Positions 5,685 to 64,000 are shown, numbered from the stretch's first letter. The stretch: 64,000 nucleotides of DNA from Clostridia bacterium (GCA_040772685.1 JAXGXQ010000001.1:449930-513929); one strand, 5' to 3'. Made by a program: numbers and translations. The notes: generated by a model not told the origin, from the sequence alone.

Positions 5685-8576
5685 TCAGCCGCGGCCATGA
5701 CAGTTTTTGTATTTTTTGCCGCTGCCGCAAGGACACGGGTCATTTCGGCCTGCCTTGTACTGGTCGCGCTTTGCCGGTGCCGGAGCCCCGCCATCTGTAT
5801 GCGGAGTCGCTGCTCCCGGGATTGCGGGACCGCCGCCTGAGCTGCTGCCGCGACTGCCGCGGCGTGGAGCTATTGCGGCTGCAGCATTCTGCTGCCTTGC
5901 CTGTTCATTTGAGCCGCCGCTTTCATCACCTGCGTAGCCGCTGCCGCCATGACCGGCCGTGATATTACGCGCGACACTGCGCCGTTCAACATTTTGTTCT
6001 GTGTTGAAACGGGCACGCATGATCAGGCGAACAGAATCTTCCTGAATAGCCTTATTCATAGCTTCAAACATTTCGAAGCCTTCACGTTTATATTCAATAA
6101 TCGGATCATGTTGAGCGTAGCTGCGCATACCAATGGTATCGCGCAGTTCATCCATGGCATCAATATGATCCATCCACTTGGCATCAACAGTGCGCAACAG
6201 GATCACGCGCTCAATTTCCCGCATTAATTCGGGATTTCCAACTTCATTTTCACGCCTGGCGTAGCGATCGAGCGCTTCCGCAGTGAGCTCACTGGTAAAT
6301 TCTTCAGCATCAATACCGTTACGGGCATCCTTGAGCTTATTCAGCGCATTGAGATCGCCAAAAAGATCACGGATTCTGGCGTCTATCGCAGGGATATCCC
6401 AAGTGGCCGAATCAGGTAGCTCAGAACAAAAATCGAGCATGGTTTCGCGCATCAGGTCTGTGATCATGTGCCGGTAGTTATCCCGCAGATCAGCACCTTC
6501 CAGCACCTGGCGACGCTGGCCATAGATCAGCTCGCGCTGCTTGTTCATTACATCATCGTATTCAAGCACATGCTTGCGGATTGAAAAGTTGCGTGCTTCC
6601 ACCCGCTTCTGGGCGGTTTCAATTGCGCCGGACAGCATTTTGTTTTCCAGCTGCATATCCTCTTCAACACCCAGAGTATTGAAAATTGTGGTCATTCGTT
6701 CGCCGCCGAACAAGCGCAGCAGATCGTCTTCCAGTGAAAGGAAGAACTGGCTCGAACCGGGGTCTCCCTGACGGCCGGCGCGGCCGCGCAGCTGATTGTC
6801 AATTCGGCGCGATTCGTGTCTTTCTGTACCGATTATCGCTAAACCGCCTGCCTCCACCACTTTTTTGTGTTCCAGGGCGGTTTCACGCGCATGCGCTTCG
6901 TTGATTTCTTTGAAGCGGCGGCGGATATCGATAATCTGAGGATCAGTTGTTTCATTGAAAGCAGTAGAAGCTTCGATCAGTTCTTCATCAAAGCCCTGCT
7001 TGCGCAGTTCCTGTTTCGTCATGAACTCAGGATTACCGCCCAGCAGAATATCTGTACCACGGCCGGCCATGTTTGTCGCTATTGTCACAGCGCCAATCCG
7101 CCCTGCCTGAGCGACAATTTCCGCTTCACGTTCGTGCTGCTTGGCATTGAGCACGTTATGAGGGATGCCATTGCGCCGGAATAATTCCGAAATCATCTCG
7201 GAACGCTCAACCGAAACAGTACCAATCAAAATCGGTTGACCAGTTTCATGTATTTCCCGGACAATTTCCAAAAGGCTTTTATATTTGCCATTCTGGGTTT
7301 TGTAAATCGCGTCCGGCCGGTCTTCCCTCACCATTGGTTGATTAGTAGGGATACTGATTACATCAAGAGAATAAATCGTGCGAAACTCGTCTTCTTCGGT
7401 TAAAGCTGTACCAGTCATGCCGGAAAGCTTCTTATACATCCGGAAATAATTCTGGAATGTAATCGTCGCGAGAGTCTTATTCTCCTTCTCGACCTTGACA
7501 TTTTCCTTGGCCTCAATAGCCTGGTGTAAACCGTTGCTATAACGGCGCCCCAGCATCAAGCGGCCAGTGAAGTCGTCAACAATCACGATCTCATCGTCCT
7601 TAACAACATATTGCTGATCGCGATGCATTGTGCCATGGGCTTTGAGCGCGTTGTTAATGTGATGGTTTATTTCGTAGTTTTCCTGATCGGACAGATTCTC
7701 GATATTGAAAAACTTTTCTGCCTTACGAACGCCGCTCGGTGTCATTACAGCGGTTTTAGCTTTTTCATCGACAATATAGTCGGCGTCATCGGTAATATCG
7801 CTTAAGTCAACTTTGGCATCTGTTTCTGTGACAACCATCGGCTTGAGCCTGCGCACAAGCTTGTCGGCCCGCTCATACAGATCAGAAGATGCCTCTCCTT
7901 CACCGGAAATGATCAGCGGGGTACGGGCTTCGTCAATCAGAATGCTGTCAACCTCGTCAATAATCGCGAAATTGAGCGGGCGCTGTACACACTGCTGCAG
8001 ATACATCACCATGTTGTCGCGCAGGTAGTCAAAGCCGAATTCGTTATTGGTTCCGTAAGTGACGTCGCAGGCATAGGCTGCCCGGCGCTGATCATTGTCC
8101 ATACCATGAATAATCAGGCCAACTGACAATCCCAGATAACGGTAAATTTTACCCATCCACTCACTGTCACGCCGGGCCAGATAATCGTTTACTGTGACAA
8201 CATGCACGCCCTTGCCGGTCAGCGCGTTCAGATACACCGGTAAAGTCGCGACCAGAGTTTTGCCTTCACCGGTTTTCATCTCTGCGATCCGGCCTTGATG
8301 CAATACCACGCCGCCAATCAGCTGAACCCGGAAGTGATACATGCCAAGAACTCGCCGCGAAGCCTCCCGCACCGCCGCAAAAGCATCGGGCAACAGATCA
8401 TCGAGTTCAACGCCCTCAGCAAGGCGGGCACGCAGCAATTGCGTGGTTTCTTTTAAATCCGCTTCAGACAAAGCGGCATATTTAGGCGCCAGTTCTTCAA
8501 TTTGGCTGACAATCGGGGTAATACGGCGAATCTCACGTTCACTGTGAGTACCGAATATTTTTTGGAGTAATCCCAT
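5685..8576 (-). CDS. secA: preprotein translocase ATPase SecA
   Basis: 963-aa ORF with a Walker A motif (MKTGEGKT) and a DEVD box ([18 protein letters not shown]). It has the C-terminal zinc-binding tail [14 protein letters not shown]. Confidence 0.97.
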
Positions 8577-41609: not shown

Positions 41610-43658
41610 ATGCCGCTTGACGGAATTTCTACACGCTGCCTTTCGGCTGAACTCGACGTTGCTTTAAAAGACGCGCGGGTTGATCGGATTTACCAGCCGG
41701 ACAAGTTCGACATTATTATAAATATGCGCCAGGATAGGGAAAACCTGAAGTTGCTGCTTTCGGCCAACCCTTCTTTGCCGCGCCTGCACCTGACTACAGA
41801 AACCAGGGAGAACCCGGCTTTGCCGCCAATGTTCTGTATGCTGCTGCGCAAGCATCTGCAGGGAGCGCGCGTACTTTCTGTGAGCACACCCGGCTCAGAG
41901 CGTATTATTGAGCTGCGCTTTCAGACTCAAAACGAACTGGGAGACAAGGTTGAGAAAACCCTGGTCGCTGAGCTGATGGGCCGCCACAGCAATATTATCT
42001 TTTTAAATGAGGACCGTCGCATTCACGACGCTATCGTGCACGTTGATGAATCGATCAGCCGTGTGCGCGAAGTAATGCCGGCCAGGGTTTATATCAGCCC
42101 GCCGGACCAGGGAAAGCGCAGTATCGAAGCCGCAGCTGCAATGCTTGCCCAGCTGCCTGTCTCAGCTGCAGAAGCCTCCGATCTATTGCCCTTTTTCCCG
42201 CCTGAACTGCATGAACGTGGGGTCGAGAAGGCTCTGCTCGAGCTGATGGCAGGTTTCTCACCGGCTCTTTGCCATGAAGTTGCTTTCCAGGCTGGCATTG
42301 ACGGCCGCAAACCGCTAAATCGTCTGACTGACGCCGAAATGCGCCTCTTGCTTTTGGCTCTGCAACAATTAATACGCACTGTGCTGACGGGCAACTTCCG
42401 GCCCAGTGTTTTCTTTCGCGATGCCGAGCAGAAAATCCCGGTGGATTTCCACGCCTTAGCTTTGAGCGACTTCGCTTTTCACCGAAAAATGCCAAACCTC
42501 TCAGCTGCCATGGACCTTTACTACACCGAGCGGCACTTACAGAATGCCCTGGCCCAGAGCCGACAGGCACTGGCCCGGCAGGTTAACCAGCAGTTGGAGC
42601 AGACACGCAAGCGTCTGCTGATTCATGAAACTGATCTGCGTGAGAGCCAGCAGATGGATGAATACCGCCGGGCCGGTGACTTGATTTTATCTTTGATGCA
42701 TGAAATCGAGGCCGGAGCCGACAGTTTGACTCGCAGCGCCGCTGAAAGCCCTGACGGCCTGCCGCTTGAGGTTAAGCTTGACCCCACACGCAGCGCGGCC
42801 CAAAACGCGCAACGTTATTATCGCCGTTACACCAAAGCCCGTGCCAGGGCCGAAATGAGCGAGCGTCTGCTGAATGCCGACCGTGCGGAAATGGAATGGT
42901 TGGAATCGCTGGAAAACGCTGTAGGCGCAGCGGAGAATCTTGGAGACCTTAAGGCTCTGCGCGACGAGATCAGCGAAGTTGGCCTGCGCCCAGCCAGTCC
43001 GTTTGGCCGCGAAGCTGAGACAAATTATTCAGATTTTGCTGCTGGCCAGGCAAACGGCAAAACAAGGGGTAAAAACGGACAAGAAACAACAGCAGGAGTC
43101 AAAGTTCAGGAGCCGGGTAAGCCCGGTAGCCGTAAGAAAAAAGCTGCTGCTCAAGCCAAACAGCGACAAATAGAGCTAAGCCGGGCTTCAGCCAAAGGCA
43201 AAGGTAAAAATAAAGCCAAGGGCAAAGGGGAGAAATCGCCTGCCGCTCTGCCGCCGCGTAAATATACCAGTTCAGACGGCTTCGCCATTTTGGTTGGCCG
43301 TAACAACCTGCAAAACGACCAGTTAACGCTCAAACAAGCGCGCAAGGATGACATCTGGCTGCATGTACAGAAAATGCCGGGCACTCACGTGATCATCAGC
43401 AGCGGCGGCCGCGAGGTGCCAGACAGCACTTTGCTGGAAGCTGCTGAAACAGCCGCTTACTTCTCGCGAGCGGCAGTTGGCGGCGGCTCGGCTGCGAAAG
43501 TCGCGGTAGATTACTGCCCGGTTGCACATGTGCGCAAACCTGCCGGCGCCCGCCCAGGCAAGGTTGTTTATGATCGTTATCAAACAATTATCGTTGAACC
43601 AAAGGATCCGGCAAGGTTGCTGCATACTCAGCCTGCTGGCGAAGAATCTTCTCTTTAA
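41610..43658 (+). CDS. rqcH: NFACT-family ribosome quality-control protein (RqcH / FbpA-like)
   Basis: MPLDGISTRCLSAELD...RIYQPDKFDIII N-terminus, a coiled-coil middle and a C-terminal NFACT-R block (DIWLHVQKMPGTHVII). A GGAGG RBS precedes the ATG at 41610. Confidence 0.85.
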   Translation: MPLDGISTRCLSAELDVALKDARVDRIYQPDKFDIIINMRQDRENLKLLLSANPSLPRLHLTTETRENPALPPMFCMLLRKHLQGARVLSVSTPGSERIIELRFQTQNELGDKVEKTLVAELMGRHSNIIFLNEDRRIHDAIVHVDESISRVREVMPARVYISPPDQGKRSIEAAAAMLAQLPVSAAEASDLLPFFPPELHERGVEKALLELMAGFSPALCHEVAFQAGIDGRKPLNRLTDAEMRLLLLALQQLIRTVLTGNFRPSVFFRDAEQKIPVDFHALALSDFAFHRKMPNLSAAMDLYYTERHLQNALAQSRQALARQVNQQLEQTRKRLLIHETDLRESQQMDEYRRAGDLILSLMHEIEAGADSLTRSAAESPDGLPLEVKLDPTRSAAQNAQRYYRRYTKARARAEMSERLLNADRAEMEWLESLENAVGAAENLGDLKALRDEISEVGLRPASPFGREAETNYSDFAAGQANGKTRGKNGQETTAGVKVQEPGKPGSRKKKAAAQAKQRQIELSRASAKGKGKNKAKGKGEKSPAALPPRKYTSSDGFAILVGRNNLQNDQLTLKQARKDDIWLHVQKMPGTHVIISSGGREVPDSTLLEAAETAAYFSRAAVGGGSAAKVAVDYCPVAHVRKPAGARPGKVVYDRYQTIIVEPKDPARLLHTQPAGEESSL

Positions 43659-44183
43659 AGTCTGATTCTTCCAACGAACGGATACAGCCGCAGTATTTTT
43701 GGCGGTATAGTCCGTCTGTGCGCGCCTGGTTCTGCCCTTCACGGAAGCCAGGGCGGAAATCCCGGTAAAGAACTTAACGCCGTATTTAGCTGCTGCCTTC
43801 TCCCCTGTTTCGCGGATCATTTCGTGATCTTGATATGGGCTGACCAATAATGTCGTTGTAAAAACAGGGATCTTATTTTCAGCAGCAACACTGGCAGCTT
43901 GCTCCAGACGCAGTTGATAACACTGCCGGCAGCGAATCGGCACCGGTTCATCGGTAGCCAGCCAGGGCACTTCATCATAGGCCGGGTCGACAATTACGGG
44001 AAAACCCAGTAGTTCGGCAAGCTGCAGCAAGTTGTCGCGCCTGCGGGTCCACTCGATAAGCGGATGAATATTTGGATTATAAAAATAACCTTGCAGCACT
44101 TCGCCCTCGGCCAGTAAAGTCCGGGCAGGATACTCGGCACATGGTCCGCAGCAGGCATGCAACAGGATAGTCGGTTTTGTCAT
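43588..44183 (-). pseudogene. queH: epoxyqueuosine reductase QueH (DUF208), apparent 1-nt frameshift
   Basis: The N-terminus LLHACCGPCAEYP and the RCRQCYQLRLE motif are intact. After KYGVKFF the conserved C-terminus YRDFRPGFREGQNQARTDGLYRQKYCGCIRSLEE continues in the +1 frame, behind a TTT run at 43767-43769. That frame stops at 43588. Confidence 0.75.
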
Positions 44184-52490: not shown

Positions 52491-52922
52491 GAATTGCCCT
52501 CCCCATCTGCAGTTAAGTACTAATGCCGCGCCGCGACAGCGAATTCAGAAGATATTATTATTTTAACGGAAACCAGACTGGAATCCAGACGGTATAACAA
52601 ATGATACCGCAAATTAACCTGCTTGTCAGCTGAAACCGCAGCTAAAGCAGCAGCGTTTTAGGCAATGCTTATTACTGGCAGCAGAGGGCAATTCGCACCG
52701 CAACCTTCCTGCTGCCATTGAGTACCTAAACCCGTAAAGTCAATTAACAACCAGAATCAATCTGCTCGTTACCTTGTTCATTTATAAGTCATAATATTTA
52801 CATGAAGCCCTAACAAGTTGAGCAATGATTCTTTACTGGACAGATGCAAGTCAATATTAGTAAACTAAGCCCAATTAACCGTGCTATTAATCAAAAAATC
52901 ATCAAATTGTAGCAGTTGATAC

Positions 52923-52951
52923 TTGCTAAAACCGAAACACGTTACTATACT
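52923..52951 (+). promoter_or_regulatory. candidate sigma-A promoter for the pilin gene
   Basis: TTGCTA (52923-52928), a 17-nt spacer, then TATACT (52946-52951). This would leave a leader of about 145 nt. Confidence 0.3.
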
Positions 52952-53098
52952 GAGGTTGTAATGTATCTCAGCTGCAAATAAACTATTACTGCCCTGTATT
53001 CAGTTTATTTGTTGAGGAAATGACATCTTCCCTGCCCCTTTCCATTCATTTTACGCGTTAACAAAAAATGTTTCGAAAAGAAAACGGAGGTTTGAAAG

Positions 53099-53470
53099 AT
53101 GAAAAGAAAATCCAAAAAGGGTTTTACCCTAATTGAACTAATCGTCGTCGTCGCGATCATCGCCATTCTGGCAGCTATCGCAATTCCCAGATTCGCGAAC
53201 ATGCGGGCAAATTCTCAAGTAAGAGCTGAGGGTGCAACAGCGGCCCAGATCGTGACTGCCGCAAGAGTACAGGAAGCTGAAAAAGGTGCAAAAGTAAATG
53301 GTGATGCAGCTACAGCAATTTTAGACGAATATATGGATGCTCCAACTGGGTTTACAATCACTGGTGGTGCCGAAGATCCTTATGAAGTCAGTTGGACAAC
53401 ATCTGCTGCAGGTTACAAATCCTCACAGAAGTATACTGAGAATGTAGAGTTTAATCCAGCTAAATCATAA
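53099..53470 (+). CDS. type IV pilin / pseudopilin with a class III (prepilin) signal
   Basis: MKRKSKKG|FTLIELIVVVAIIAILAAIAIPRF is a canonical prepilin peptidase site followed by the hydrophobic alpha1 helix. 123 aa, ending ...NPAKS. An ACGGAGG RBS is present. Confidence 0.9.
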   Translation: MKRKSKKGFTLIELIVVVAIIAILAAIAIPRFANMRANSQVRAEGATAAQIVTAARVQEAEKGAKVNGDAATAILDEYMDAPTGFTITGGAEDPYEVSWTTSAAGYKSSQKYTENVEFNPAKS

Positions 53471-53531
53471 TTTATTAACCATTTTTTATAATCGAATTAA
53501 TCAAATATAATTTATTCAGCTAGCTAAAAAG

Positions 53532-53590
53532 AACTCCCCCGCTGTTCATAAATGGTAAAAAGCCATGACCGCGGGGGAGTTTTATTTTTG
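53532..53590 (+). terminator. intrinsic terminator after the pilin gene
   Basis: AACTCCCCCGC (53532-53542) pairs with GCGGGGGAGTT (53571-53581) and is followed by TTATTTTTG. Confidence 0.7.
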
Positions 53591-53674
53591 TATTGTTGAA
53601 TATATTAGAGTGTCGTTATATTTGGTGGTGTCAACGATCTTTCGCACTTTAGTTGTTCGCTTGGTTTCTGGCGG

Positions 53675-54007
53675 TCAGCCAACTGCTAGATCCGCTGTCA
53701 CCTCTGCTTCCAATTCCATAGCTTCTAGGTGTTTCATGTTCAGGTAATGCTTCGAACCCCAAAGCGAATCTTCCATGTAACGAAGCCTGGCACAGACCAG
53801 CATTAGGGCGGAATAGGCATCAGGGAAAGAGCCTACGACCCTGGTTCGTCGCCGGATTTCCCGGTTAAGCCGTTCGATGGCATTATTGCTGCGGATTTTC
53901 AGCCAGTGTTCACGAGGAAAAGCCATGTAGGTCAAGGTTTCAGCGATAGAATCTTCAACCTTTTTGGCTGCTTCTTTAAGCTTCATTTCCCGGAGTTTGA
54001 CAACAAC
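53675..54007 (-). pseudogene. IS256-family (mutator-type) transposase, C-terminal fragment
   Basis: KLREMKLKEAAKKVEDSIAETLTYMAFPREHWLKIRSNNAIERLNREIRRRTRVVGSFP is the conserved IS256 C-terminal block. The first residues of the track ORF are encoded by the IS21 end. Confidence 0.85.
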
Positions 54008-54172
54008 TGGAAACCACGCTCGCTTAAGGCCATCGCCGCACATAAATAAGGCCATCGCCGCGCACTAAGAAGGCCACTCGCGCGCTCGATGAAGGTCAGC
54101 CTGTAAATAATGTCAACCTTCAGTAGAATTTTATTGCCACCAGAGGTGGTAATTTTTTTATGGAGGTTTGAG

Positions 54173-55618
54173 ATGAGTTCAAACTATTTGTACATCGTGC
54201 GTTCTGTTTTCAATGGCATCAGTCAGAGGAAAGCGGCAAAATCACATGGTGTCTCCCGCGACACCGTATCGATTCTAGTTAACTATGCCCATAGTCGAGG
54301 GTGGATGAATCTTGAAGATCTGGAATCGTGTACCGAAGCGGATTTTGAGGCTGCCATGCAACGTAAGCCGGGTTTGGGAGCCAATCGAGACGTCTCGTAT
54401 GCGATGCCAGACTATGACTATGTTCACGCTGAACTAGGTAAGGAACATGTCACGCTCACCTTGTTATGGGAGGAGTATGTGGCAGATTGTATGGCAACTG
54501 GCAAACGTTATTACGGAGAAACCCAGTTCAGGCGGTACTACCATAGGCATGCCGGAATGTCGAAGGCGACTATTCGTTTAACGCATAAGCCGGGATTGTC
54601 TGTTCAGGTTGACTGGGCTGGCTCTCGTATCGCTTTCTATGACGAAGATGTGGGGGAAATGGCCCAAGCGTCCTTGTTTGTGGGTATTTTGCCGTGCAGT
54701 TCTCTTATTTATGTAGAATCGTTCCGGCATGAGAAAATGCCAAGTTGGATTTCCGCCCATAATAACATGTTCCAGTATTTCGGTGGAGTGCCAAGGACGG
54801 TCGTCACCGACAATCTTAAAGTAGGTGTAGACAAGGCTATCTTCTATGAGCCAAGCATCAATCGAACCTATCAAGAAATGGCTGAGCATTATGGGACGGT
54901 TATTCTCCCGACCAGAATCGCCAAACCGCGGAATAAAGGCGCTGTAGAAAATGCGGTCAAAATCGCATCACATAGGATTCTGGGCAAGTTGAGAAATCAA
55001 TCATTTCATACATTCTGTGAGCTGAAAGCTCACGTGGCAGACGCTCTGGAAGCCGTTAACTCGGCTCTGTTAACAGGGAAAAGCGTAAGTCGTTGGAGTT
55101 CTTTCCATGCTGAGGAGAAAGACTACCTGCTCACGCTTCCCCCAGAGCCCTTTATCTTGTCGGAGTGGACGACAGCCAAAATTCAACCAAATTGCCACGT
55201 CGCCTTCCAGGGCCATTACTATTCCGTGCCATTCGAATATCTAGGTGAAACAGCCGAGATTCGAGCCACGCAAGGAACAGTAGAGATATTTTACCATCAT
55301 CAACGTGTTGCTTCACATAAGCGGGAATGGGGACAGAAGCAGTACATCACCGTCACAGACCACATGCCCCCAAACAAGCTCTTCTTCGCTGACTGGAATG
55401 CGGATCGCTTCATTCAATGGGCTGCACAAATCGGGCCGTCGTGTAAGAAAGTCATCCGCCTGAACCTGGACGCCGCAGTGCACGAGCAACATGCTTACCG
55501 ATCCTGCTTTGGGATATTAGGACTCAAGGATAAATTCTCTTCAAAACGTTTGGAACAAGCGTGTCAGCTCATGTTGAGCCGTAGTTATTCGCCGCAATAC
55601 ATGTGTTTGGCAAGATAG
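54173..55618 (+). pseudogene. istA: IS21 IstA transposase (copy 1), interrupted after about 476 codons
   Basis: It has an HTH N-terminus and a DDE region (VQVDWAG, VVTDNLK). The reading frame is broken at 55601/55602 by the nested IS and resumes after 58093 (SQVKRILERKEDL...). Confidence 0.85.
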
Positions 55619-55730
55619 AAACCATCCATTGCGGAAGCTAAGAAACCAGCCAGCTGTAGAATAAAGACTCCACTGCCAACCACCCGCTCAGGTATCCTTT
55701 TAGTATTGCAAACTGAAAGGATGAACGGAG

Positions 55731-57251
55731 ATGTTAACAGTGGAGCAGATTTATGATATCAGAGAAATGTACTACAAAGAAAGTAGGAGCATCCGCGAAA
55801 TCTCGCGAATTACTCAGCGTGACCGCGGCACCATTAAACGTTATGTCGAACAAAATAGCTTCAGTCTTGATGCTCCCGTCCGCCAGCGACGCAGCAGAAA
55901 AACGGATGAGTATCGAGCGATGATTAAACAATGGCTGATCGATGACGAAAGAGCGCCGCGCAAGCAGCGCCATACAGCCAAAAAGGTCTACGACCGTCTG
56001 GTCGCAGAGCAGCAGAGAAAAGGACTTGTACTGGATATCTCCGACCGGAGCATCCGTACCCTGGTGGCAGAGATAAAACGCGAATTAGCTCAGCAGGAAG
56101 CAGCTTCACTGCCGTTGTTGCATCCTGCCGGAGAAGCGCAGGGCGACTTTGGCACAACCGTTTTTTACGAACGCGGTATTAAATACGAAGGTTATCACCT
56201 CTGTCTGACCTTGCCGCATTCAGATGCCAAGTATACCCAGCTTTTCAAGGGTCAGGACTTTGAGTGTCTGGCTCGCGGCTTAATCGAAATCTTCACACAT
56301 ATCGGCGGCGTGCCCACGGCAATCCGTTTCGATAACATGTCAACAGCGGTAAAGGCAATTAAGGCCCATGGCGGGCGCGAGCTGACAGACAATTTCCTGC
56401 GGTTGCAGTGTCATTTCGGGTTCGAGAGCAACTTTTGCAATCCGGCAGCCGGGCATGAGAAGGGATCAGTGGAGAACTTTGTCGGCTATAGTCGCCGCAA
56501 CCTGTTTGTTCCTGTCCCTGAGACTAATGACCTTGCCGCATACAATCAGGATCTGCTCCGGCGCTGTGATGCCCGTCTTGAAGAAGAGCATTACAAACTT
56601 GAACGTTTGGTGAAGGACCTGTTTACTGAAGACCAAGCCAGGCTTCTGCCGCTGCCGGCCTATCCCTTTGATGCCTGCCGCTATGTGCCGGCCCGGACTG
56701 ATAATTATGGCATGGCCAAGTACCAGACCAACCGCTACTCTACAGCCGGTCACCTCAGGCGCAGCAATATAACTTTGAAGGTTAACGCATATACGGTGAC
56801 GGTGCTGGACGAACAGATGCGAGTGATTGTCAGGCATCCTCGCATGTATGGACAAAAGAAAGAATCCATGATCTGGACCCCTTACCTGGAAGTACTGGCC
56901 AAGCGCCCGATGGCAATTAAGTACAGCGGTTTTTATGAGAATCTGCCCAGGCCACTGAAACGCTTTATGGATGACTGCGACCTTAGCGGCAAACAGCAGA
57001 TTCTGCAATTACTCGCCCGAGAGAGCAGCGACGGTGATCTTGATACCCCTTTATTTCACCTGACTGAGGCTGTTGGCCTGAACCCAACAGACGCTGACGG
57101 CCTGATCGCGACATACGCCTTTGTTACCAATAAACCGGGTCAGCCTTTGAAAGAATCCGTTCCTGAGCTATTGCCGGAAACACCCGGAATACAGTCTGGA
57201 TCTGGGCGTATATGGGCAACTCATGGGAGGGTTCGCATGTCAAAACAATGA
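55731..57251 (+). CDS. istA: IS21 IstA transposase (copy 2), apparently full length
   Basis: A 506-aa ORF with an HTH N-terminus and a DDE core (AQGDFG, IRFDNMSTAV, GHEKGSVEN). Confidence 0.85.
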   Translation: MLTVEQIYDIREMYYKESRSIREISRITQRDRGTIKRYVEQNSFSLDAPVRQRRSRKTDEYRAMIKQWLIDDERAPRKQRHTAKKVYDRLVAEQQRKGLVLDISDRSIRTLVAEIKRELAQQEAASLPLLHPAGEAQGDFGTTVFYERGIKYEGYHLCLTLPHSDAKYTQLFKGQDFECLARGLIEIFTHIGGVPTAIRFDNMSTAVKAIKAHGGRELTDNFLRLQCHFGFESNFCNPAAGHEKGSVENFVGYSRRNLFVPVPETNDLAAYNQDLLRRCDARLEEEHYKLERLVKDLFTEDQARLLPLPAYPFDACRYVPARTDNYGMAKYQTNRYSTAGHLRRSNITLKVNAYTVTVLDEQMRVIVRHPRMYGQKKESMIWTPYLEVLAKRPMAIKYSGFYENLPRPLKRFMDDCDLSGKQQILQLLARESSDGDLDTPLFHLTEAVGLNPTDADGLIATYAFVTNKPGQPLKESVPELLPETPGIQSGSGRIWATHGRVRMSKQ

Positions 57252-57962
57252 TTCTTGAGCTCTGCCGCCAGCTGCGTCTGGGTAACCATATCGCCGAGAG
57301 CTATGAAGATATTGAAGCAAAGACGAATGAAGAGTTTCTCATAAAGATTCTAACGGAAGCTGTTGCCCGCCGTGATACGGAACGACGCAAACGCTATATT
57401 CAGCAAGCCGGCTTTGATCTGATGAAAGGTTACGACAGCTTTGATTTCTCAGATATTGTCCTACCAGAGAGCCTCTCGCCAGCTAGCCTGCGTGCCTGTG
57501 AGTTTGTAGCCAACCGGCAGAACCTTATTTTGTACGGACGGCCAGGAACCGGCAAGACTCATCTGGCAATTACTTGTAGAATTGAAGCCTGCAAGCGCGA
57601 TTTCAAAGTTATCTACTACAAAGACCAGCCGACTGGTGAATCTGCTGTCACAAGCCAAGGGCGAAAACGAACCGAAAGCAAGTTCTGGCGCAAACTGCAG
57701 CAAGCCAACCTGCTGATTTTGGATGAGTGGGGCTACATCCCATTTGAGAGGGTCGGTACACAGTTACTGTTCGAGGCCATATCTGACTGTTATGAGAAAA
57801 CGGAGTGTGATAATTACGACCAACTTACCCTTTGACGAATGGAACACGATCTTCTATGACCAAAAACTGACGGCAGCCATTTTGGATCGTTTGATCCACC
57901 ATGGTTTGCTCCTGATGCACGATGGCCAGAGCTACCGCCTGCAGAATTCTCAGATGCAATAG
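57248..57962 (+). pseudogene. istB: IS21 IstB helper ATPase (copy 2), frameshifted
   Basis: The start overlaps the istA stop (ATGA). Walker A is GRPGTGKTH and Walker B is LLILDEWGY. The frame changes near 57800 (CYEK | SVIITTNLPFDEWNTIF). Confidence 0.8.
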
Positions 57963-58227
57963 CGGAGCACGAATGATTGGAATGAAGCGAGTGGCGGTAT
58001 TAATTTCCGCAGTGGTTGGTTTTTAGCTTCCATAGTGGTAGGTTTTTAATTTCCACGCTGGTTGGTTTTCTACTTGCCAAACACAGCAATACAGTCAAGT
58101 AAAACGCATTCTTGAGCGAAAAGAAGATTTGACGGCAGCAGAGACGGATATTAGCCAGCAGGAAAAACCGAAAGGCTTCCGCCGTGGCGCTGACTACTAT
58201 GGAAAAGAAAATTATGAGGATACGGTC

Positions 58228-58970
58228 ATGTTGAGAAATGAGACAGTACAACAACTGAGAGCATTGAGGCTCTCCGGATTTGCAGATGCATTGGAAGAAC
58301 AATACGCATCCATATCCTTTGAGGAATTAACTTTTGACGAGCGTCTTGGGCTCCTGGTCGATCGGGAAGTCTCAAAACGCAAGAGCAGCAAAATCGAGCG
58401 ATTCATTCGGCAGGCACGATTTCAGAACTCGGAAGCCTGTGTGGAAAACATCCATTACCATTCAGGACGCAAATTGGATCGAAAACTTATTCTTTGAGCT
58501 GGCCAGCTGTCAGTATATCCACCATGCTGGGAACGTCAACATCTTTGGTGCGACAGGTGCTGGGAAGAGCTATATCGGTCAGGCCTTGGGGCAGGCTGCA
58601 TGCCGCATGGGGATGGGCGCTCGATACATTCAATTGCCGGATCTGTTGGAAGAGTTGAAAATAGCCAGACAACACGGAACCGAGCGATGGACAAGGAAAC
58701 GGAAAGAATTTACTAACATTCCATTGCTTATTCTAGACGAATTCTTGCTGTTTAAAAATCGATGACTTGGACTGCCAGCATCTTCTGCAACTTATCGATC
58801 GGCGGAGTTCCAAAGGTCAACGATCGTCATCACACAGTACAACCCGGATGAGTGGATTGCACAGATGCCGATACAAGTGGCAGCGGGAAGCCATAACCGA
58901 CCGTTTGACGGCACAAGCATATTCGATCCTTATTGAAAGCAAGGAATCGATGCGAAACATCGGTAGCTAG
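58228..58970 (+). pseudogene. istB: IS21 IstB helper ATPase (copy 1), multiple frameshifts
   Basis: MLRNETVQQLRALRLSGFADALEEQ start, then Walker A GATGAGKSY and Walker B LLILDEF. The C-terminus lies in three different frames (breaks near 58490 and 58765). Confidence 0.8.
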
Positions 58971-59078
58971 GACATTTTTAGACTAAATCACTTTTATTGA
59001 GCGCGCGGGTGGCCTTTTTCATCCGCGCGCTTGGCCTTTTTAGTGCGAAGGACTGGCCTTTTTCATGCGCGGTTTCCA

Positions 59079-59950
59079 AACAACCGCTTTAGCTTTTTCC
59101 TGAGCAGCATCTTTGTCCTCTTGAGCGTGGATCGCCTTTAGCATCGCAGCCACATCTTTCATCTTTCCTCGGGGCACCACCGTGAAGACATTGCGATAAA
59201 AATGGATATAACACCGTTGGTATTTGGCATCTGGAAATACTGAGTTTATCGCATCCACAAGCCCTAAGCACTTATCGCCAATGAAAAGGCGTGTTCCGGT
59301 CAGACCCCGTTCTTTCAGGCTAACCAGGAAGTTTCGCCAGCTTTCCTTGTCTTCTTTCATGCCTTCAGCAGCACCGATGACTTCGCGCTGACCATCTGCG
59401 TTAACAGCCATTGCCACCAGGATTGCGACGTTTTCGAAACTGCCACCCCAGTTGCGTTTGAGATAAATGCCGTCCAGATAAACGTAAGGATAAGCCACAA
59501 GCAGAGCCCTGGCGCCATTCATCGATCTTGACGTAGACCTTCTGGTTTAGTTTGCTAACCGTTCCAGCGCTCACTTTCGTACCCCAAAGTGCTTCTGTGA
59601 TATCTTCCACTCGACGCACAGATACGCCGGCCAGGTACATCTCTACAAGCGCCTCTTCCACACTGATTTCACGCCGTTTATAGCGTTCAATGATCGCTGT
59701 CTCAAATGTCAGAGTCGCAGTTTCGGCACTTTCAGCTTAACCTCACCAGCTTTGGTTAAAAGCTTTCGTTTGTAATGCCGGCGCGAGTATCCAGACGGTC
59801 AGCCTTGCGCTCATAACGGGTCGCATTCGTCAGTCGATTTGCTTCTTCGTCCAGGAGCGCATTCAATGTGTCTTCTACACTTTGTCGCACCATTTCTCCG
59901 AGTTCTTGCTTTATGAGTCCCTCATTAAGCTGTATAATTTCTTTAGACAT
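59079..59950 (-). pseudogene. IS256-family transposase, N-terminal and central fragments with frameshifts
   Basis: MSKEIIQLNEGLIKQELGEMVRQ (RBS CAAGGAGA) is followed by VEMYLAGVSVRRVEDITEALWG and YPYVYLDGIYLKRNWGG...FPDAKYQRCYIHFYRN. These blocks lie in different frames. Confidence 0.85.
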
Positions 59951-60063
59951 GGCTCGTTCTCCTTGCTCGGTTTTATGTTTTTGTTTTCCACTTAACATTT
60001 TAACCAAGCGAACGGGTCATGTCCTTATTTTTCCGATTGTGCGAAACTTATGATACGTCATCT

Positions 60064-60148
60064 CTTGACGTAGACCTTCTGGTTAAGTTTGCTGACCGTC
60101 CAGCGCTCACTTTTGTGCCCCAAAGCGCCTCTGCGATATCTTCTACAT
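60064..60148. repeat. orphan fragment of about 85 bp from a second IS256-family copy
   Basis: It matches 59527-59610 closely by eye (cttgacgtagaccttctggtt.agtttgct.accgt...ccccaaag.gc.tctg.gatatcttc). Confidence 0.75.
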
Positions 60149-60205
60149 GGATGATGCAAGGGTTGCCTTCTCTATACATTCTGCTATAAACACAATAATT
60201 GCTTG

Positions 60206-61573
60206 CTACTCTAGGTGGTTACTAATAATGTAGTTCTCCACTCTATCTGCTTTTGCTTTTTCTTTTTTACTCCTATTAAAAGGATTTCGCATGAATTTTT
60301 TAAGCACAAACCCAATTGCTACAGCAAATGCTGCGTCAATCGCATACACATAATCGCCCACCATCTTACCGAATGCTGTATCTTTTACCCAGATGAAAAA
60401 CGACATGGCAAAATTCCATTGTTTATCACCAAAGAAAAACTGTAATACGATAAACACGATAAAAACAAGAGTAAGCAACACAGCAGCTATAGGCGCAAAA
60501 TAGTAATCGAAGAAATATCTAGGCAATATTTGTTTCTCAGCCAAATTGCAAATTTGCTCACGCTTTTTATCAAGCTCTTTTGATTTTTCTTCTATATCAT
60601 CTTGTTTTTGCTGGAGAAGCTTTTCTCGTGCTATCACATCTGATTGTAATTTCTGAACTTGCTGCTCCTTCTCAGCAGAAACTTCAGCGATGCTTACAAT
60701 TTGAAGACCTTTTTCCTTTAGTTGAGCTTCAAGATAGTTTTGACTGAATCGCTGTGTCTGCTTATAAAGATCATCATCTGTTTTACAGCGTTGAAGTATT
60801 TTTTGAAATTCATCGTCGTATACAGCAGAAACGAGCCCCTCTTGCGTCTCTATATCTTCGGTAATTGAGCTAATTCCAGAAATAATTATATTGGCCTTTT
60901 CTGGTGTGATTTGCTTGGAGGTTGCCCTAATATTTATAAAGCTAACAAAACTATCATAATCATTGGCAGAACGACCACACAGCTTTATCAATATCAAGAA
61001 TAGTTGGCTCGGATATACTACAACTGGATATAGGATCTCCCTTCTAGTCATATCCCAATAACGAAGAGCTTTGTCAGACGAAATTAAGAATATATCCTTA
61101 TCTTCATCATATTTCTCGCGTAATAGCTCAACATATCTTATTACAGTCGCATCATGACTATATCTAAGAGAATAAGATTCGTCCTCAGCTGTATAGAAAG
61201 GTTTCAGCTCAAGCTTTTTATTTTTTATAGATGATGAGTAAGCGTTTCTTTTTTCTTTGAATTCAGGTGAGTCATATATAAATTTTGGAATCTTTTCATC
61301 ATCTGTAATTCCATATTGCGATACTAAACTGTGATATAAGGTACGAATGTGAAAAATGAAATACTTCAAAGAAAGTGCGCTGTGGCTCTGATGCCAACTT
61401 TCATAAAACGCAAAGATATTATAATCTGTTAATTGTTCATAAGCGCCAGCAAAAACTTCGCCTCTTGGAAATTGTGCGATTTGCGATACATAGTAATCGA
61501 TCGTATCAAAAAATTCTTTTTTTGTAGAATGTGAAATGATAATTTTAACTTTTGCCTGCTTACACTTGCTCAA
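60206..61573 (-). CDS. hypothetical protein: soluble N-region + coiled-coil + C-terminal TM helices (possibly the surviving 3' part of a larger decayed gene)
   Basis: A 455-aa ORF in AT-rich DNA, with a TTG start and no convincing RBS. It has a coiled-coil (AEKEQQVQKLQSDVIAREKLLQQKQDDIEEKSKELDKKREQ) followed by 2-3 hydrophobic helices. The frame stays open 16 codons further upstream. Confidence 0.5.
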   Translation of the reverse strand: MSKCKQAKVKIIISHSTKKEFFDTIDYYVSQIAQFPRGEVFAGAYEQLTDYNIFAFYESWHQSHSALSLKYFIFHIRTLYHSLVSQYGITDDEKIPKFIYDSPEFKEKRNAYSSSIKNKKLELKPFYTAEDESYSLRYSHDATVIRYVELLREKYDEDKDIFLISSDKALRYWDMTRREILYPVVVYPSQLFLILIKLCGRSANDYDSFVSFINIRATSKQITPEKANIIISGISSITEDIETQEGLVSAVYDDEFQKILQRCKTDDDLYKQTQRFSQNYLEAQLKEKGLQIVSIAEVSAEKEQQVQKLQSDVIAREKLLQQKQDDIEEKSKELDKKREQICNLAEKQILPRYFFDYYFAPIAAVLLTLVFIVFIVLQFFFGDKQWNFAMSFFIWVKDTAFGKMVGDYVYAIDAAFAVAIGFVLKKFMRNPFNRSKKEKAKADRVENYIISNHLE

Positions 61574-62480
61574 AATGCTATTACAACTTTCTGTCTTTGA
61601 AGCACCGTTAATACGAGTGCTCTAAAAATTACATTCGTGCTCCAAAATAAACTTCACGTTTTCTAATTGTTGTTTTTAGCAATTTATTTGGAGAATCTCC
61701 ATTAACTAAAAGACAATATTCAAGGCAACAATAAACGACATTGCTAAGAGCAACATTTTTTTCATCATTATCCCATTCAAGAAAATCATGAACCATAGAT
61801 TTTTTCTTTGTCAGATAAGTAGTCGACATTTACAGATAATTCTTTGTCGGAAAAATCCCGATCATCTTTGCCCAAAAGGAGCACTCTGTATGAATTTATG
61901 TTAGTGGTAGTAAGCTCATATAGATATTGATGAATGGCATCCTGCATTTATCTTGGTCATTATTTTCGATTCCTTGAATGTAGGTATCAATATAATAATC
62001 AATATTATAATTTTGCGATTTAACTGTCTGCGCATAAACGTCATCCGCAAGCTTGTATCACGTACCCATCTATTTTTAAGCTTTGAAAGGTTCTTTTAGA
62101 GCGGCCAACTATTGAAAGCACTTTTATCTTTAGAAATGTGATATTTTATATATGTCCAAAGCTCTGCTTATAATTTCATTGCAGAGCATATAGCGATTGC
62201 CACTATTAACAAACATACACTTAACCATTTGTAATGTGAGCTTCAAAGAGTATAGATACTTGTTTCCGAATACAACGATAGACGCAAGACGAAAAATGTC
62301 TTTTTGTTTTGCTATATCGTTTTTTAATGGTGCTGAAATATAATGCCTTTATCGCTCCTTTATGTCGTATATTGGTTCCATGTTTAGCAACCACATGAGA
62401 TTTTCTATATGTACAATCAAAAAGTCAATACCGCTCGGAACAAGACTGTTGTTCGTCAGCGATAATGCCATGGTATAACT
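61574..62480 (-). pseudogene. decayed coding region upstream of the 455-aa ORF
   Basis: Protein-like minus-strand segments lie in all three frames and are broken by stops. Examples: ISAPLKNDIAKQKDIFRLASIVVFGNKYLYSL; QDAIHQYLYELTTTNINSYRVLLLGKDDRDFSDKELSVNVDYLSDKEKIYGS; MVHDFLEWDNDEKNVALSNVVYCCLEY. Confidence 0.5.
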
Positions 62481-62502
62481 CATCAGCGATAATGTCATCC
62501 CT

Positions 62503-63350
62503 TCAATGGATTAGAAGGGGTTCTGAACATATACAACTTTTGCCGAAGTTTCGTTTTTGAATTATCAGGCATAAGTAGTAGTTGTCGCCATATTGATGTG
62601 CGACGGTATACTCATTTTGAATCATCATCTCTGCGTAAAGATAACTTACCATATGACTCAACAACCGGAGGTGTGTCATCGTTTTCAAAATCCATTTTGC
62701 AAATAATAAACTCATCACCTAATAAATGGACATAGTGCTCTTGTAATAGATTTTTGATAATATTTATAAATTTAAGAAATATATTCATTATATCAAAATA
62801 ATCATTAATACTTCTTGGTGCTTTTTTATTCCCGAATGGATTATTTGCATGCAAGAAATCGGAAGAATAATTATATGCTACGATAAACCATTTCTTAGTC
62901 AATATATTTTTCGACAATATCCTGCTCAAGCTTCAGGGTAATATGTCTTAAAGCATCAACATCTTGTTTATAACTTATGTTAATGTCTTCGCATTTGCTG
63001 ACTCTTCGAGAAATTGTTCATTTTCAAGAGTAATGAAGCGACATTGGCTTGGATAAAAACCAGAATTCAATTTTTCTACAGTTTTGAGAATGCGAATCGC
63101 TTTTCCAATCAGTTTTCCAATCAGTTTTACAATTCACCGCCGAGCTTCTATATATTTTTCCTTGTTAGCGATAAGGCTCGAGAAAGCGATAATTTCGAGA
63201 CACTTTCTTAATTGCAAAGCAATTGTGTCAATATCCAATAGGAATTTGTTTCTTTTCGTTATGGAAGTGCGTAAAAATGCATATTATTGCTGTCAATCGC
63301 TGTTTCAATTCTGACATACAGTTCGCATACAATTGAAAATTAGTGTTCAT
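62503..63350 (-). pseudogene. decayed gene (about 280 codons) with in-frame stops and frameshifts
   Basis: AGGAGG plus the ATG at 63350 gives MNTNFQLYANCMSELKQRL. A frameshift follows, then a single frame carrying four in-frame stops (TGA, TAA, TAA, TGA). Another frameshift occurs near 62650. Confidence 0.65.
63101..63124. repeat. perfect 12-bp tandem duplication inside the decayed gene
   Basis: ttttccaatcag occurs twice (63101-63112 and 63113-63124) and encodes LIGK-LIGK on the minus strand. Confidence 0.9.
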
Positions 63351-63604
63351 TATTCCTCCTAGAATAATGTTGTCGTATGGTGACGGTAGATTACTGGATC
63401 AAAAGAACCTGCGATAATGCGGTATGTGGCTTCGAGTGTCGCCGGTGCTTTTGAGGCTTGTCCTCGTAAGGAGTCTGGTGTCTCTTTCGTGGCAGTTCAC
63501 GAAGAGCTGGATGTTGAGACCGTGGTCTACCGATCACTGTCAAGAGGTTGTGAGCCGCTTGAGCGTGAGGATTCATCCTGCAACTACGCTGTCAGAGGTG
63601 AATC

Positions 63605-64000
63605 ATGCTGTATCTGGGAATTGACATCGGCGAGCCGGTGAAGCCGGCCTGCTGAACGAAGATGGCACTCATCGTGGGAAGTCTCCTTACGCTTCAGTAA
63701 TACGACGGACGGTTTCGAGAAGCTCCGTCTTCATCGAAGGCAAACGCGAAGAAGATGAACCGTTGTCTATCAGGATGGAGGCTACGGGTCACTACTGGCT
63801 GGCACTATTCGTTCTCGCCAGCGTGACTTCAGCTTTCCGTCATCAACCCGATTCAGTCCGACAGCATGCGCAACTTCAAGATCCGCCAGACCAAGACTGA
63901 CAGCGTCGACTGCTTTCTCATTGCCGACGTCATTCGCTTTGGTCTCTTCACTGAAACCCATCTGGCACGAGGATATCCCGATCCTTGCGCACCTGGCCCG
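63605..64000 (+). pseudogene. IS110-family transposase, 5' part, multiply frameshifted (continues beyond the window)
   Basis: MLYLGIDIG.., AGLLNEDG, FSNTTDGFEKL, EPLSI.MEATGHYWLALF and VINPIQSDSMRNFKIRQTKTDSVDCFLIADVIRFG are all recognisable. They are spread over three frames. Confidence 0.7.

Follow-up and report, generated by a model that had tools for sequence, protein, structure and literature searches.

Defence functions are strongly enriched among genes nested in restriction-modification (R-M), BREX and comparable systems, and the classic embedded case is PrrC, which is almost exclusive to Type I R-M (bioRxiv 10.1101/2024.01.29.577857). Anticodon nucleases of the PrrC/RloC type combine an N-terminal ABC-type NTPase with a C-terminal PrrC nuclease. 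Other embedded defence proteins carry a nuclease of the PIN superfamily, as is the case for HEC-09 and HEC-03B, both embedded in Hma (helix-turn-helix (HTH) plus NYN/PIN-like and VapC-like PIN, respectively); in HEC-09 an N-terminal HTH-like domain is joined to the nuclease, and conserved aspartates are needed for function. Small stand-alone defence genes, on the other hand, are found at sites such as the gpA-gpQ locus of P2 phages, a documented old/tin defence hotspot (PMC9122126). Here we compare these systems with an AT-rich island located near one end of a 64,000-nt stretch of DNA from a Clostridia bacterium (GCA_040772685.1, JAXGXQ010000001.1:449930-513929; the whole stretch is hereafter called the window), which contains the remains of two genes, here named gene A and gene B.

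In our view this island is fairly likely to be the remnant of a horizontally acquired defence island, with two unrelated and inactivated accessory genes. An initial annotation, made from the DNA sequence alone, is partly supported by our analysis: it was right in its thrust (a foreign, decaying, defence-like segment), wrong in its anatomy and unproven as to function. A defence role of both families is predicted from the genomic context of their intact homologues, which for gene B includes the very slot that PrrC occupies in Type I R-M operons.

Anatomy of the island and of gene B

The GC content is 0.340 over positions 60150-63390 and remains at 0.30-0.37 in each 400-nt window between 60.2 and 63.4 kb, whereas same-sized windows elsewhere in the 64-kb stretch have a mean of 0.506 (standard deviation (sd) 0.021, minimum 0.452), which places the island about 8 sd lower. 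The GC content at third codon positions (GC3) is 0.31 in the longest open reading frame (ORF) of the island and 0.48-0.66 in the neighbouring host genes. All island ORFs longer than 80 aa lie on the minus strand. The AT-rich segment at about 60.15-63.39 kb and its minus-strand coding potential, both described in the initial annotation, were therefore borne out by windowed GC, GC3 and the ORF scan. Horizontal acquisition, also proposed there, is supported by the host-discordant composition and by the nearest relative of gene B, which is 57% identical and comes from other Clostridia. Over 1-53 kb the host genes are long, tightly packed ORFs, i.e. the decay is local to the island.

Concerning the anatomy, the island had been divided into three parts: a decayed gene, a region of about 900 bp of protein-like fragments, and a surviving ORF of 455 aa with a coiled coil and C-terminal transmembrane helices. 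There are instead two genes. The 455-aa ORF has 259 homologues, the best intact ones being 52-57% identical over 100% of the ORF and about 713 aa long. When three of these intact homologues were mapped with tblastn, their residues 4-242 fell on 62339-61626, which is the fragment region; the fragments and the ORF therefore belong to a single gene (gene B), of which the fragments form the N-terminus. The ORF and its described features are present (about aa 294-350 are coiled-coil-like, and aa 353-385 form a strong hydrophobic helix, Kyte-Doolittle 3.0), as parts of a truncated remnant of the longer protein.

The decay of gene B is supported by multiple frameshifts, the loss of the start codon and the loss of a catalytic residue. 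According to a frameshift-aware alignment, the N-terminal 260 codons are broken by 7-9 frameshifts, nearly all of them +/-1 changes within short runs of A, T or G. When read along the shifting frames, this part contains zero in-frame stops and is 57% identical to the nearest homologue, a value equal to that of the C-terminal part. No ATG, GTG or TTG is found at the family start position, which reads R-H-Y-I-S-A-P-L after AGGAG, and the codon of the invariant Asp237 is destroyed by two inserted bases. The 455-aa ORF thus lacks strand 1, two helices and the first catalytic Asp of the predicted PIN-like domain described below. Stop-codon reassignment or recoding was rejected as an explanation, since the apparent stops are a mixture of TAA, TAG and TGA and vanish once the frameshifts are followed.

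Predicted domains and genomic neighbourhoods of the gene B family

We used an AlphaFold (AF2) model of the intact Flavonifractor sp. An10 protein WP_087237860.1 (56 homologues, mean predicted local distance difference test score (pLDDT) of 80) as a representative of the family. The model predicts a winged helix (residues 35-101, approximately), then a helical domain extending to about residue 216, an alpha/beta domain at residues 232-460 (strands at 232-236, 269-273, 349-352, 418-422 and 443-444, with helices between them) and a continuous helix at 524-638, which would run as a coiled coil into a transmembrane segment, followed by further hydrophobic helices up to the C-terminus. A Foldseek comparison with the PDB matched the winged helix (STIV F93, PadR/MarR types; 2co5, PadR-type, template modelling (TM) score 0.6), and the best structural matches apart from it were the PIN-like nucleases HARP (8ssf/8kd9/7og5), AF1683 (1w8i, TM 0.56) and Rrp44 PIN. 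These PIN-like matches have probabilities of 0.87-0.98, target TM scores of 0.42-0.57 and E-values of 0.1-0.4, the latter being weak because the query was the whole 713-aa model.

D237 (part of an L-D-T-N motif that closes strand 1), E279, D400 and S423-x-D425 are invariant in 56/56 aligned homologues, and the same acidic set is invariant in 8 further sequences, the most divergent being a Clostridium estertheticum plasmid protein of 28% identity; the family thus has the conserved residues of the acidic metal site of the PIN type (3-4 acidic residues, including (S/T)-x-D). According to the model, the strand-helix order of the domain may be that of PIN nucleases (VapC toxins, HARP, AF1683, Rrp44 PIN), whose alpha/beta/alpha fold has a parallel sheet in the order strand1-helix-helix-strand2...strand5, and the four invariant acidic residues, including the Ser-x-Asp, lie at predicted strand ends; the domain differs from them in having large helical insertions between strands 2-3 and 3-4, and in being fused to a membrane anchor, which is unusual for PIN proteins. 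As judged from the model, the family is a probable PIN-like metal-dependent nuclease, although it is no demonstrated member of a curated PIN family and no curated PIN profile in Pfam scores above threshold. No ATPase domain was detected in Pfam or NCBIfam, and no P-loop fold is present in the model. A PDB sequence search with the gene B profile returned coiled-coil noise only, a comparison with a library of viral predicted structures gave generic winged-helix matches only, and no papers were found in literature searches for WP_087237860, DUF7491, PF24319 and PF26635.

The family is common in gut and rumen Clostridia (one protein, P0033, is alone present on 241 contigs), and 22 loci carrying it were examined (contigs or loci carrying homologues of either gene are designated by L-numbers). 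In the Flavonifractor-type contigs (L001-5/L010) the gene order is hsdM-hsdS-B-hsdR-ygjP, and this order is repeated in three further species-level lineages (L011, L014 and L016), with spacers of 11-14 nt; among these, B is 48-87% identical, compared with 72-94% for HsdM and HsdR. For the four lineages together, ranges of 48-53% (B) and 72-78% (HsdM/R) are also recorded. In four lineages, then, gene B homologues occupy the hsdS-hsdR slot of a Type I R-M operon, which the window copy does not, no hsdM, hsdS, hsdR or other R-M gene being matched anywhere in the 64-kb window. Elsewhere, gene B follows a D12 methylase and an AlwI endonuclease (L015), adjoins a ResIII/Eco57I enzyme (L023), or stands in the order HTH-B-PLD/DUF3427 helicase-nuclease (L007 and L026), the former locus also carrying NUDIX, GmrSD (GmrSD_N) and Eco57I-type methylases nearby. 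Additional neighbours are a SNF2 helicase (L012), YhcG/DUF1016 (L019), a Schlafen-type (SLFN) helicase (L022) and PglZ-like genes (L017). A small HTH_26 gene is often found upstream, and the remaining contexts are integrative elements, transposons and plasmids.

These contexts could also be understood if the family served addiction or stabilisation, or if it regulated mobile elements and R-M operons, for example as a membrane-bound RNase controlling R-M expression or a toxin retaining the operon. Many copies do lie on integrative or conjugative elements, transposons and plasmids (with integrases, TnpV, a serine recombinase, Rep and VirB4), the preceding HTH_26 gene gives a toxin-antitoxin-like arrangement, and frameshifted or split copies are frequent (L022 4362-6580, L023 5216-7356 as part of L023-25, L026 5528-7668, and the window itself), which fits a costly or toxic gene. 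However, most neighbours are restriction or defence enzymes and not transfer genes, and the tight hsdS-hsdR insertion has been kept across lineages although B has diverged to 48% identity. We consider such a role unlikely as an alternative to defence, while noting that the two roles are compatible with each other.

The EcoprrI prr locus is among the closest known systems. The gene B homologues share with PrrC/RloC the slot of a single same-strand gene, tightly spaced between hsdS and hsdR, and an RNase-type effector domain is predicted in the family, as found in these proteins. In contrast, gene B has neither the ABC-type NTPase nor the PrrC nuclease, being instead composed of winged helix, PIN-like domain, coiled coil and membrane anchor, it shows no sequence or profile similarity to PrrC in the PADLOC search, and the window copy lacks any R-M partner. 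With HEC-09 and HEC-03B the likeness lies in the predicted nuclease superfamily and, for HEC-09, in the N-terminal HTH-like domain; yet gene B was not detected as a homologue of either with PADLOC v2.0.0, is longer (about 713 aa, with a coiled coil of about 90 residues and C-terminal transmembrane helices) and partners Type I/II R-M and not Hma.

We infer PIN-type nuclease activity, a defence role and a link to R-M function for intact members of the family. In the mechanism that we propose, the winged helix would be the likely nucleic-acid-binding or sensing module, followed by the helical domain as a linker, and the PIN-like domain, with its invariant Asp-Glu-Asp-(Ser-x-)Asp set, would act as a metal-dependent nuclease; the long coiled coil would probably serve for dimerisation and the C-terminal helices for membrane anchoring. 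By analogy, such a membrane-tethered nuclease may be a back-up or abortive-infection effector, held in check by the adjacent restriction system, or cooperating with it, as PrrC is by EcoprrI.

A side observation concerns the region upstream of hsdM in L001-L005 (1-4196) and L010, where three genes directly precede the operon. One product, of 1012 aa, weakly matches PF05183 (RNA-dependent RNA polymerase of eukaryotic type); the others are an unknown protein of 292 aa and an AAA_14/DUF4143 ATPase. These genes may represent another defence module.

Gene A and its family

Gene A, to which the initial annotation had given about 280 codons, has about 246-252 codons in the window, compared with about 205 aa in intact family members; around 30 extra codons lie in the middle of the gene, and a stop-free path is obtained when the frames are followed. 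While a word-indexed search with gene A returned one homologue, an exhaustive HMMER search returned 1287 cluster representatives. The AF2 model of the family (pLDDT 92, predicted TM score (pTM) 0.88) shows a predicted helical bundle with a small sheet, for which a structure search found no significant fold match in the PDB. The closest match is a weak one to the sacsin HEPN domain (3o10, probability 0.30, E=1.1); of the four-helix bundle with a conserved Rx4-6H motif that marks the HEPN superfamily, this canonical motif is absent. The conserved residues of the family are R52-K53-x-L-E56, H141-x-x-N-P145 and H173.

Homologues of gene A are found in several kinds of accessory location. In Alteromonas (L027, SIHL01000008.1, 1-12618), the homologue at 6001-6618 is an attC-flanked cassette of a chromosomal integron, a call made from the repeats and the ORF layout: about 16 copies of a 45-120-nt attC-like repeat (starting with ...TAACAA and ending with ...GTTAT/GTTAG) separate every small same-strand ORF. 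This array also includes a ParDE pair. In Undibacterium the homologue lies in a similar array of small genes, and beside it we observed, at 7290-7337 (minus strand) of L029, a Guanidine-II (mini-ykkC) riboswitch (RF01068, 36.1 bits) upstream of an SMR-family transporter. In Spirosoma (L031, CP041360.1, 913483-926133) the order is HTH_3-SIR2_2-A-SmaI-N4/N6 methylase, on an integrase island; near-duplicate integrase-VapE-primase modules stand on either side of the block, an arrangement suggestive of tandem integrative elements. Additional homologues are encoded on a small MobQ plasmid and in the gpA-gpQ locus of the P2-like Yersinia phage vB_YpM_50.

The family thus resembles P2 old/tin, DUF4238 and integron single-gene cassettes in consisting of small stand-alone genes at such sites, while sharing no homology with Old, Tin or the other listed hotspot families. 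Gene A probably works on its own, as a defence or conflict gene, and it would move as a single-gene cassette through integrons, the P2 old/tin hotspot and a SIR2/SmaI island.

The possibility that the foreign look of genes A and B is deceptive, and that they are ordinary housekeeping or prophage structural genes, which the initial annotation had named as what would overturn its reading, is suggested by the one gene A homologue in a P2-like phage. That copy, however, sits in the accessory hotspot, away from the structural genes. For gene B, a search of 50,697 phage records found nothing and the library of viral predicted structures offered no meaningful counterpart, and both families are sporadic across phyla and located in variable regions. 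With the homologues found in accessory and defence contexts, this possibility is extremely improbable and can be regarded as effectively refuted.

A conserved two-gene system formed by A and B was also considered and rejected: tblastn of 51 gene A family members against the 22 gene B loci found no copy, and the gene A contexts examined contain no gene B. A co-occurs with B in none of the other loci examined; their adjacency in the window reflects the clustering of genes in defence islands and not a two-gene system.

Uneven decay, flanking elements and significance

The idea of a defence-like module has to be divided accordingly. Intact homologues are indeed located in R-M operons, defence islands, the P2 hotspot and integron cassettes; the two genes form no conserved module, and their function is predicted from context. 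The nearby surface-structure locus to which the initial annotation had appealed does not figure in this evidence. Several findings weigh against reading the island as the dead remnant of a defence island. Neither family has a match in PADLOC v2.0.0, Pfam or NCBIfam, the defence role being predicted by analogy: the 455-aa ORF and the intact gene B relatives belong to no family in these three collections, gene A to none in Pfam or PADLOC, and a PADLOC run over gene A, gene B and the intact gene B homologues returned insignificant matches only (PDC-S05, E=0.006 over 50 residues; DruG, E=0.54). The PIN scores are sub-threshold not only in Foldseek but also in Pfam, where PF13638 PIN_4 reaches 13.6 bits against a cut-off of 21.9 (E=0.085), in 1/4 gene B family proteins, at the matching position. 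About one third of the gene B contexts (L008, L013, L018, L020, L021) hold mobile-element genes only. Finally, the decay itself is odd in two respects: each of the 12-14 lesions is a +/-1 indel in a short homopolymer, and about 510 codons contain no nonsense mutation (some 5.4% of random substitutions would create a stop), a pattern that is unusual for ordinary decay and resembles long-read consensus error; and the 455-codon ORF is too clean for neutrality, so that "completely dead" may be wrong for this part.

The first oddity raises the question of whether the decay is an assembly artefact, i.e. whether both genes are intact and the lesions are homopolymer errors left uncorrected in a long-read consensus, in a region that is difficult to polish and rich in insertion sequences (ISs). 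Besides the lesions themselves (mostly insertions, and all in short runs of A/T or G), the IS copies on the flanks are likewise rich in frameshifts, and the source contig extends for 740 kb across nested IS elements, which suggests long reads. Moreover, a host queH-like gene at 43323-44183 (minus strand; motif LYRQKYCGC, epoxyqueuosine reductase) has a T4->T3 frameshift near 43.7 kb. This is, as a separate observation, the only obviously broken host gene in 53 kb. The other host genes across these 53 kb are intact, and general assembly error was rejected as a full explanation for this reason. Additionally, an error rate of about 9 per kb cannot spare 1368 nt amid the affected region, the 12-nt tandem duplication and the roughly 30 extra codons of gene A are atypical of base-calling errors, and gene B lacks a start codon where its family has one. 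We find it rather improbable that the decay is artefactual.

The second oddity raises the question of whether the 455-aa ORF (partial PIN, coiled coil and membrane anchor) is still expressed and selected, in a new or residual role, so that the dead parts would be limited to gene A and the first, 5' third of gene B. Its 1368 nt contain zero lesions, compared with 7-9 indels in the adjacent 777 nt and at least 5 in gene A (Poisson P of about 1e-6 to 1e-5), despite offering more homopolymer targets than the decayed part (35 vs 20 runs of at least 4). It also retains 58/58 invariant and 114/117 near-invariant residues. Furthermore, the split is not unique to the window: in L023-25, an independent lineage, a 1-nt deletion in the Cys263 codon, seen in several samples, gives ORFs of 262 aa and 451 aa with an ATGA stop/start overlap, at most 3 codons from the start of the window ORF, whose TTG start codon overlaps the TGA that ends the upstream frame. 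That the gene was split independently at the same residue may be a hint that the C-terminal module acts alone or in trans with the N-terminal half. On the other side, with strand 1, two helices and Asp237 missing, the nuclease fold is unlikely to form from the ORF alone, and the TTG start is preceded by only a weak and distant Shine-Dalgarno sequence (AGAAAG). The promoter scan gave 19 sites vs 14 +/- 3.6 expected, not above the shuffled expectation, and the terminator scan gave a similar outcome; with the next homologue at 57% identity, there is no relative close enough for estimating the ratio of non-synonymous to synonymous substitutions (dN/dS). We regard continued selection as possible but rather doubtful.

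Both oddities would be explained by slippage-driven decay of unselected AT-rich DNA combined with purifying selection on the C-terminal ORF, in which case the truncated protein would keep some function. The module as first built cannot work, because it has no R-M partner, gene A has at least 5 frameshifts, and gene B has lost its start, its N-terminal 260 codons and the first catalytic Asp.

Under the defence-island reading, which we continue to favour, a piece of a horizontally acquired defence island would have entered a Saccharofermentanales-like Clostridia genome and would then have been trimmed on both sides by IS256 and IS110 activity. This placement of the host is judged from the named members (Saccharofermentanales or Oscillospiraceae bacterium) of the 90% clusters to which host proteins belong. 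That IS256 and IS110 remnants bracket the island, as the initial annotation had it, is confirmed by the matches to PF00872 and PF01548, and the IS21 transposase domains between them were likewise found with Pfam; every copy of the three families is frameshifted or interrupted (Table 1). The left flank consists of three nested insertion sequences (IS21 within IS21 within IS256).

Table 1. Features of the island and of its flanks in the 64,000-nt window
Feature	Coordinates	Strand	Evidence or remarks
IS256-family element, left flank	53675-60007	-	PF00872 Transposase_mut on 53675-54055 and 59040-59522; E=1.5e-42 and 5e-19
IS21 splitting the IS256 transposase gene	IstA 54110-55618; IstB pieces 58129-58970		IstA (rve, Mu-transpos_C_2) and IstB PF01695 domains (IstB domain 58334-58765)
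Second IS21, splitting the first IS21	IstA 55731-57251; IstB 57212-57962		IstA/IstB domains (IstB domain 57212-57835)
84-nt piece from the interior of a second IS256-family copy, at the left boundary of the island	60063-60146		88-95% identical to 59526-59610 inside the IS256 transposase gene
Gene B, whole	60206-62348	-	Remnant of a protein of about 713 aa
Gene B, C-terminal part (uninterrupted 455-codon ORF, family residues about 260-713)	60206-61573	-	Homology, tblastn mapping
Gene B, N-terminal part (winged helix, helical domain and start of the PIN-like domain, all predicted; 7-9 frameshifts)	61574-62348	-	tblastn and frameshift-aware alignment
Spacer between genes A and B	62349-62611		Contains a 19-nt imperfect direct repeat
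Gene A, pseudogene	62612-63350	-	Family of about 205 aa; AGGAGG and ATG at 63350; at least 5 frameshifts
12-nt tandem repeat in gene A, 2.8 copies	63101-63133		Duplicates the conserved (T)DWK motif
IS110-family transposase remnant, several frameshifts, continuing past the window end	63391-64000	+	PF01548 DEDD_Tnp_IS110, E=1.7e-17, concatenated (frame-corrected) frames

Some further observations were made in and around the island. The repeat in the spacer, upstream of gene B, is TCRTCAGCGATAATGYCAT (62453-62471 and 62480-62498, copies 27 nt apart) and could be an operator or the leftover of a small upstream ORF. A second low-GC stretch (52600-53600, GC 0.38-0.44) lies immediately to the left of the IS cluster, and it may formerly have been continuous with the island. 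This stretch carries a type IV pilin-like gene (53099-53470, plus strand; N_methyl motif, GC3 0.33), accompanied by a strong terminator hairpin (53526-53587). No RNA genes were detected when the island and its flanks were scanned with Rfam and for tRNAs, a search of E. coli genomes and plasmids gave no match to near-identical DNA, and exact-pattern scans of Joint Genome Institute (JGI) metagenome contigs (one island pattern and one pilin-terminator pattern), covering an independent assembly or an empty site, gave no match either.

Taken by itself, the window instance is ordinary, a mostly dead, IS-trimmed, AT-rich relic, and its value lies in pointing to two uncharacterised candidate defence families. 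A more specific proposal, which we put forward only tentatively, is that both genes are relics of undescribed anti-phage families: B would be a membrane-anchored, winged-helix-guided, PIN-like effector, a non-homologous analogue of PrrC guarded by or backing up Type I restriction, with the 455-codon ORF as a still-selected truncated derivative, and A a widespread single-gene defence with a fold unlike solved structures. The uneven, indel-only decay of the island, in turn, calls for caution when telling pseudogenes from long-read consensus errors.

The gene B family occupies PrrC's slot in Type I R-M operons, yet has a different architecture and no annotation, and may be, on the basis of its predicted structure, a new architectural variant of the R-M-embedded nuclease theme. 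The gene A family comprises more than 1,000 clusters across phyla, has a confident but unmatched predicted fold and appears in three kinds of defence or accessory hotspot. Both families would extend the lists of R-M-linked back-up immunity genes and of integron- and phage-borne single-gene defences.

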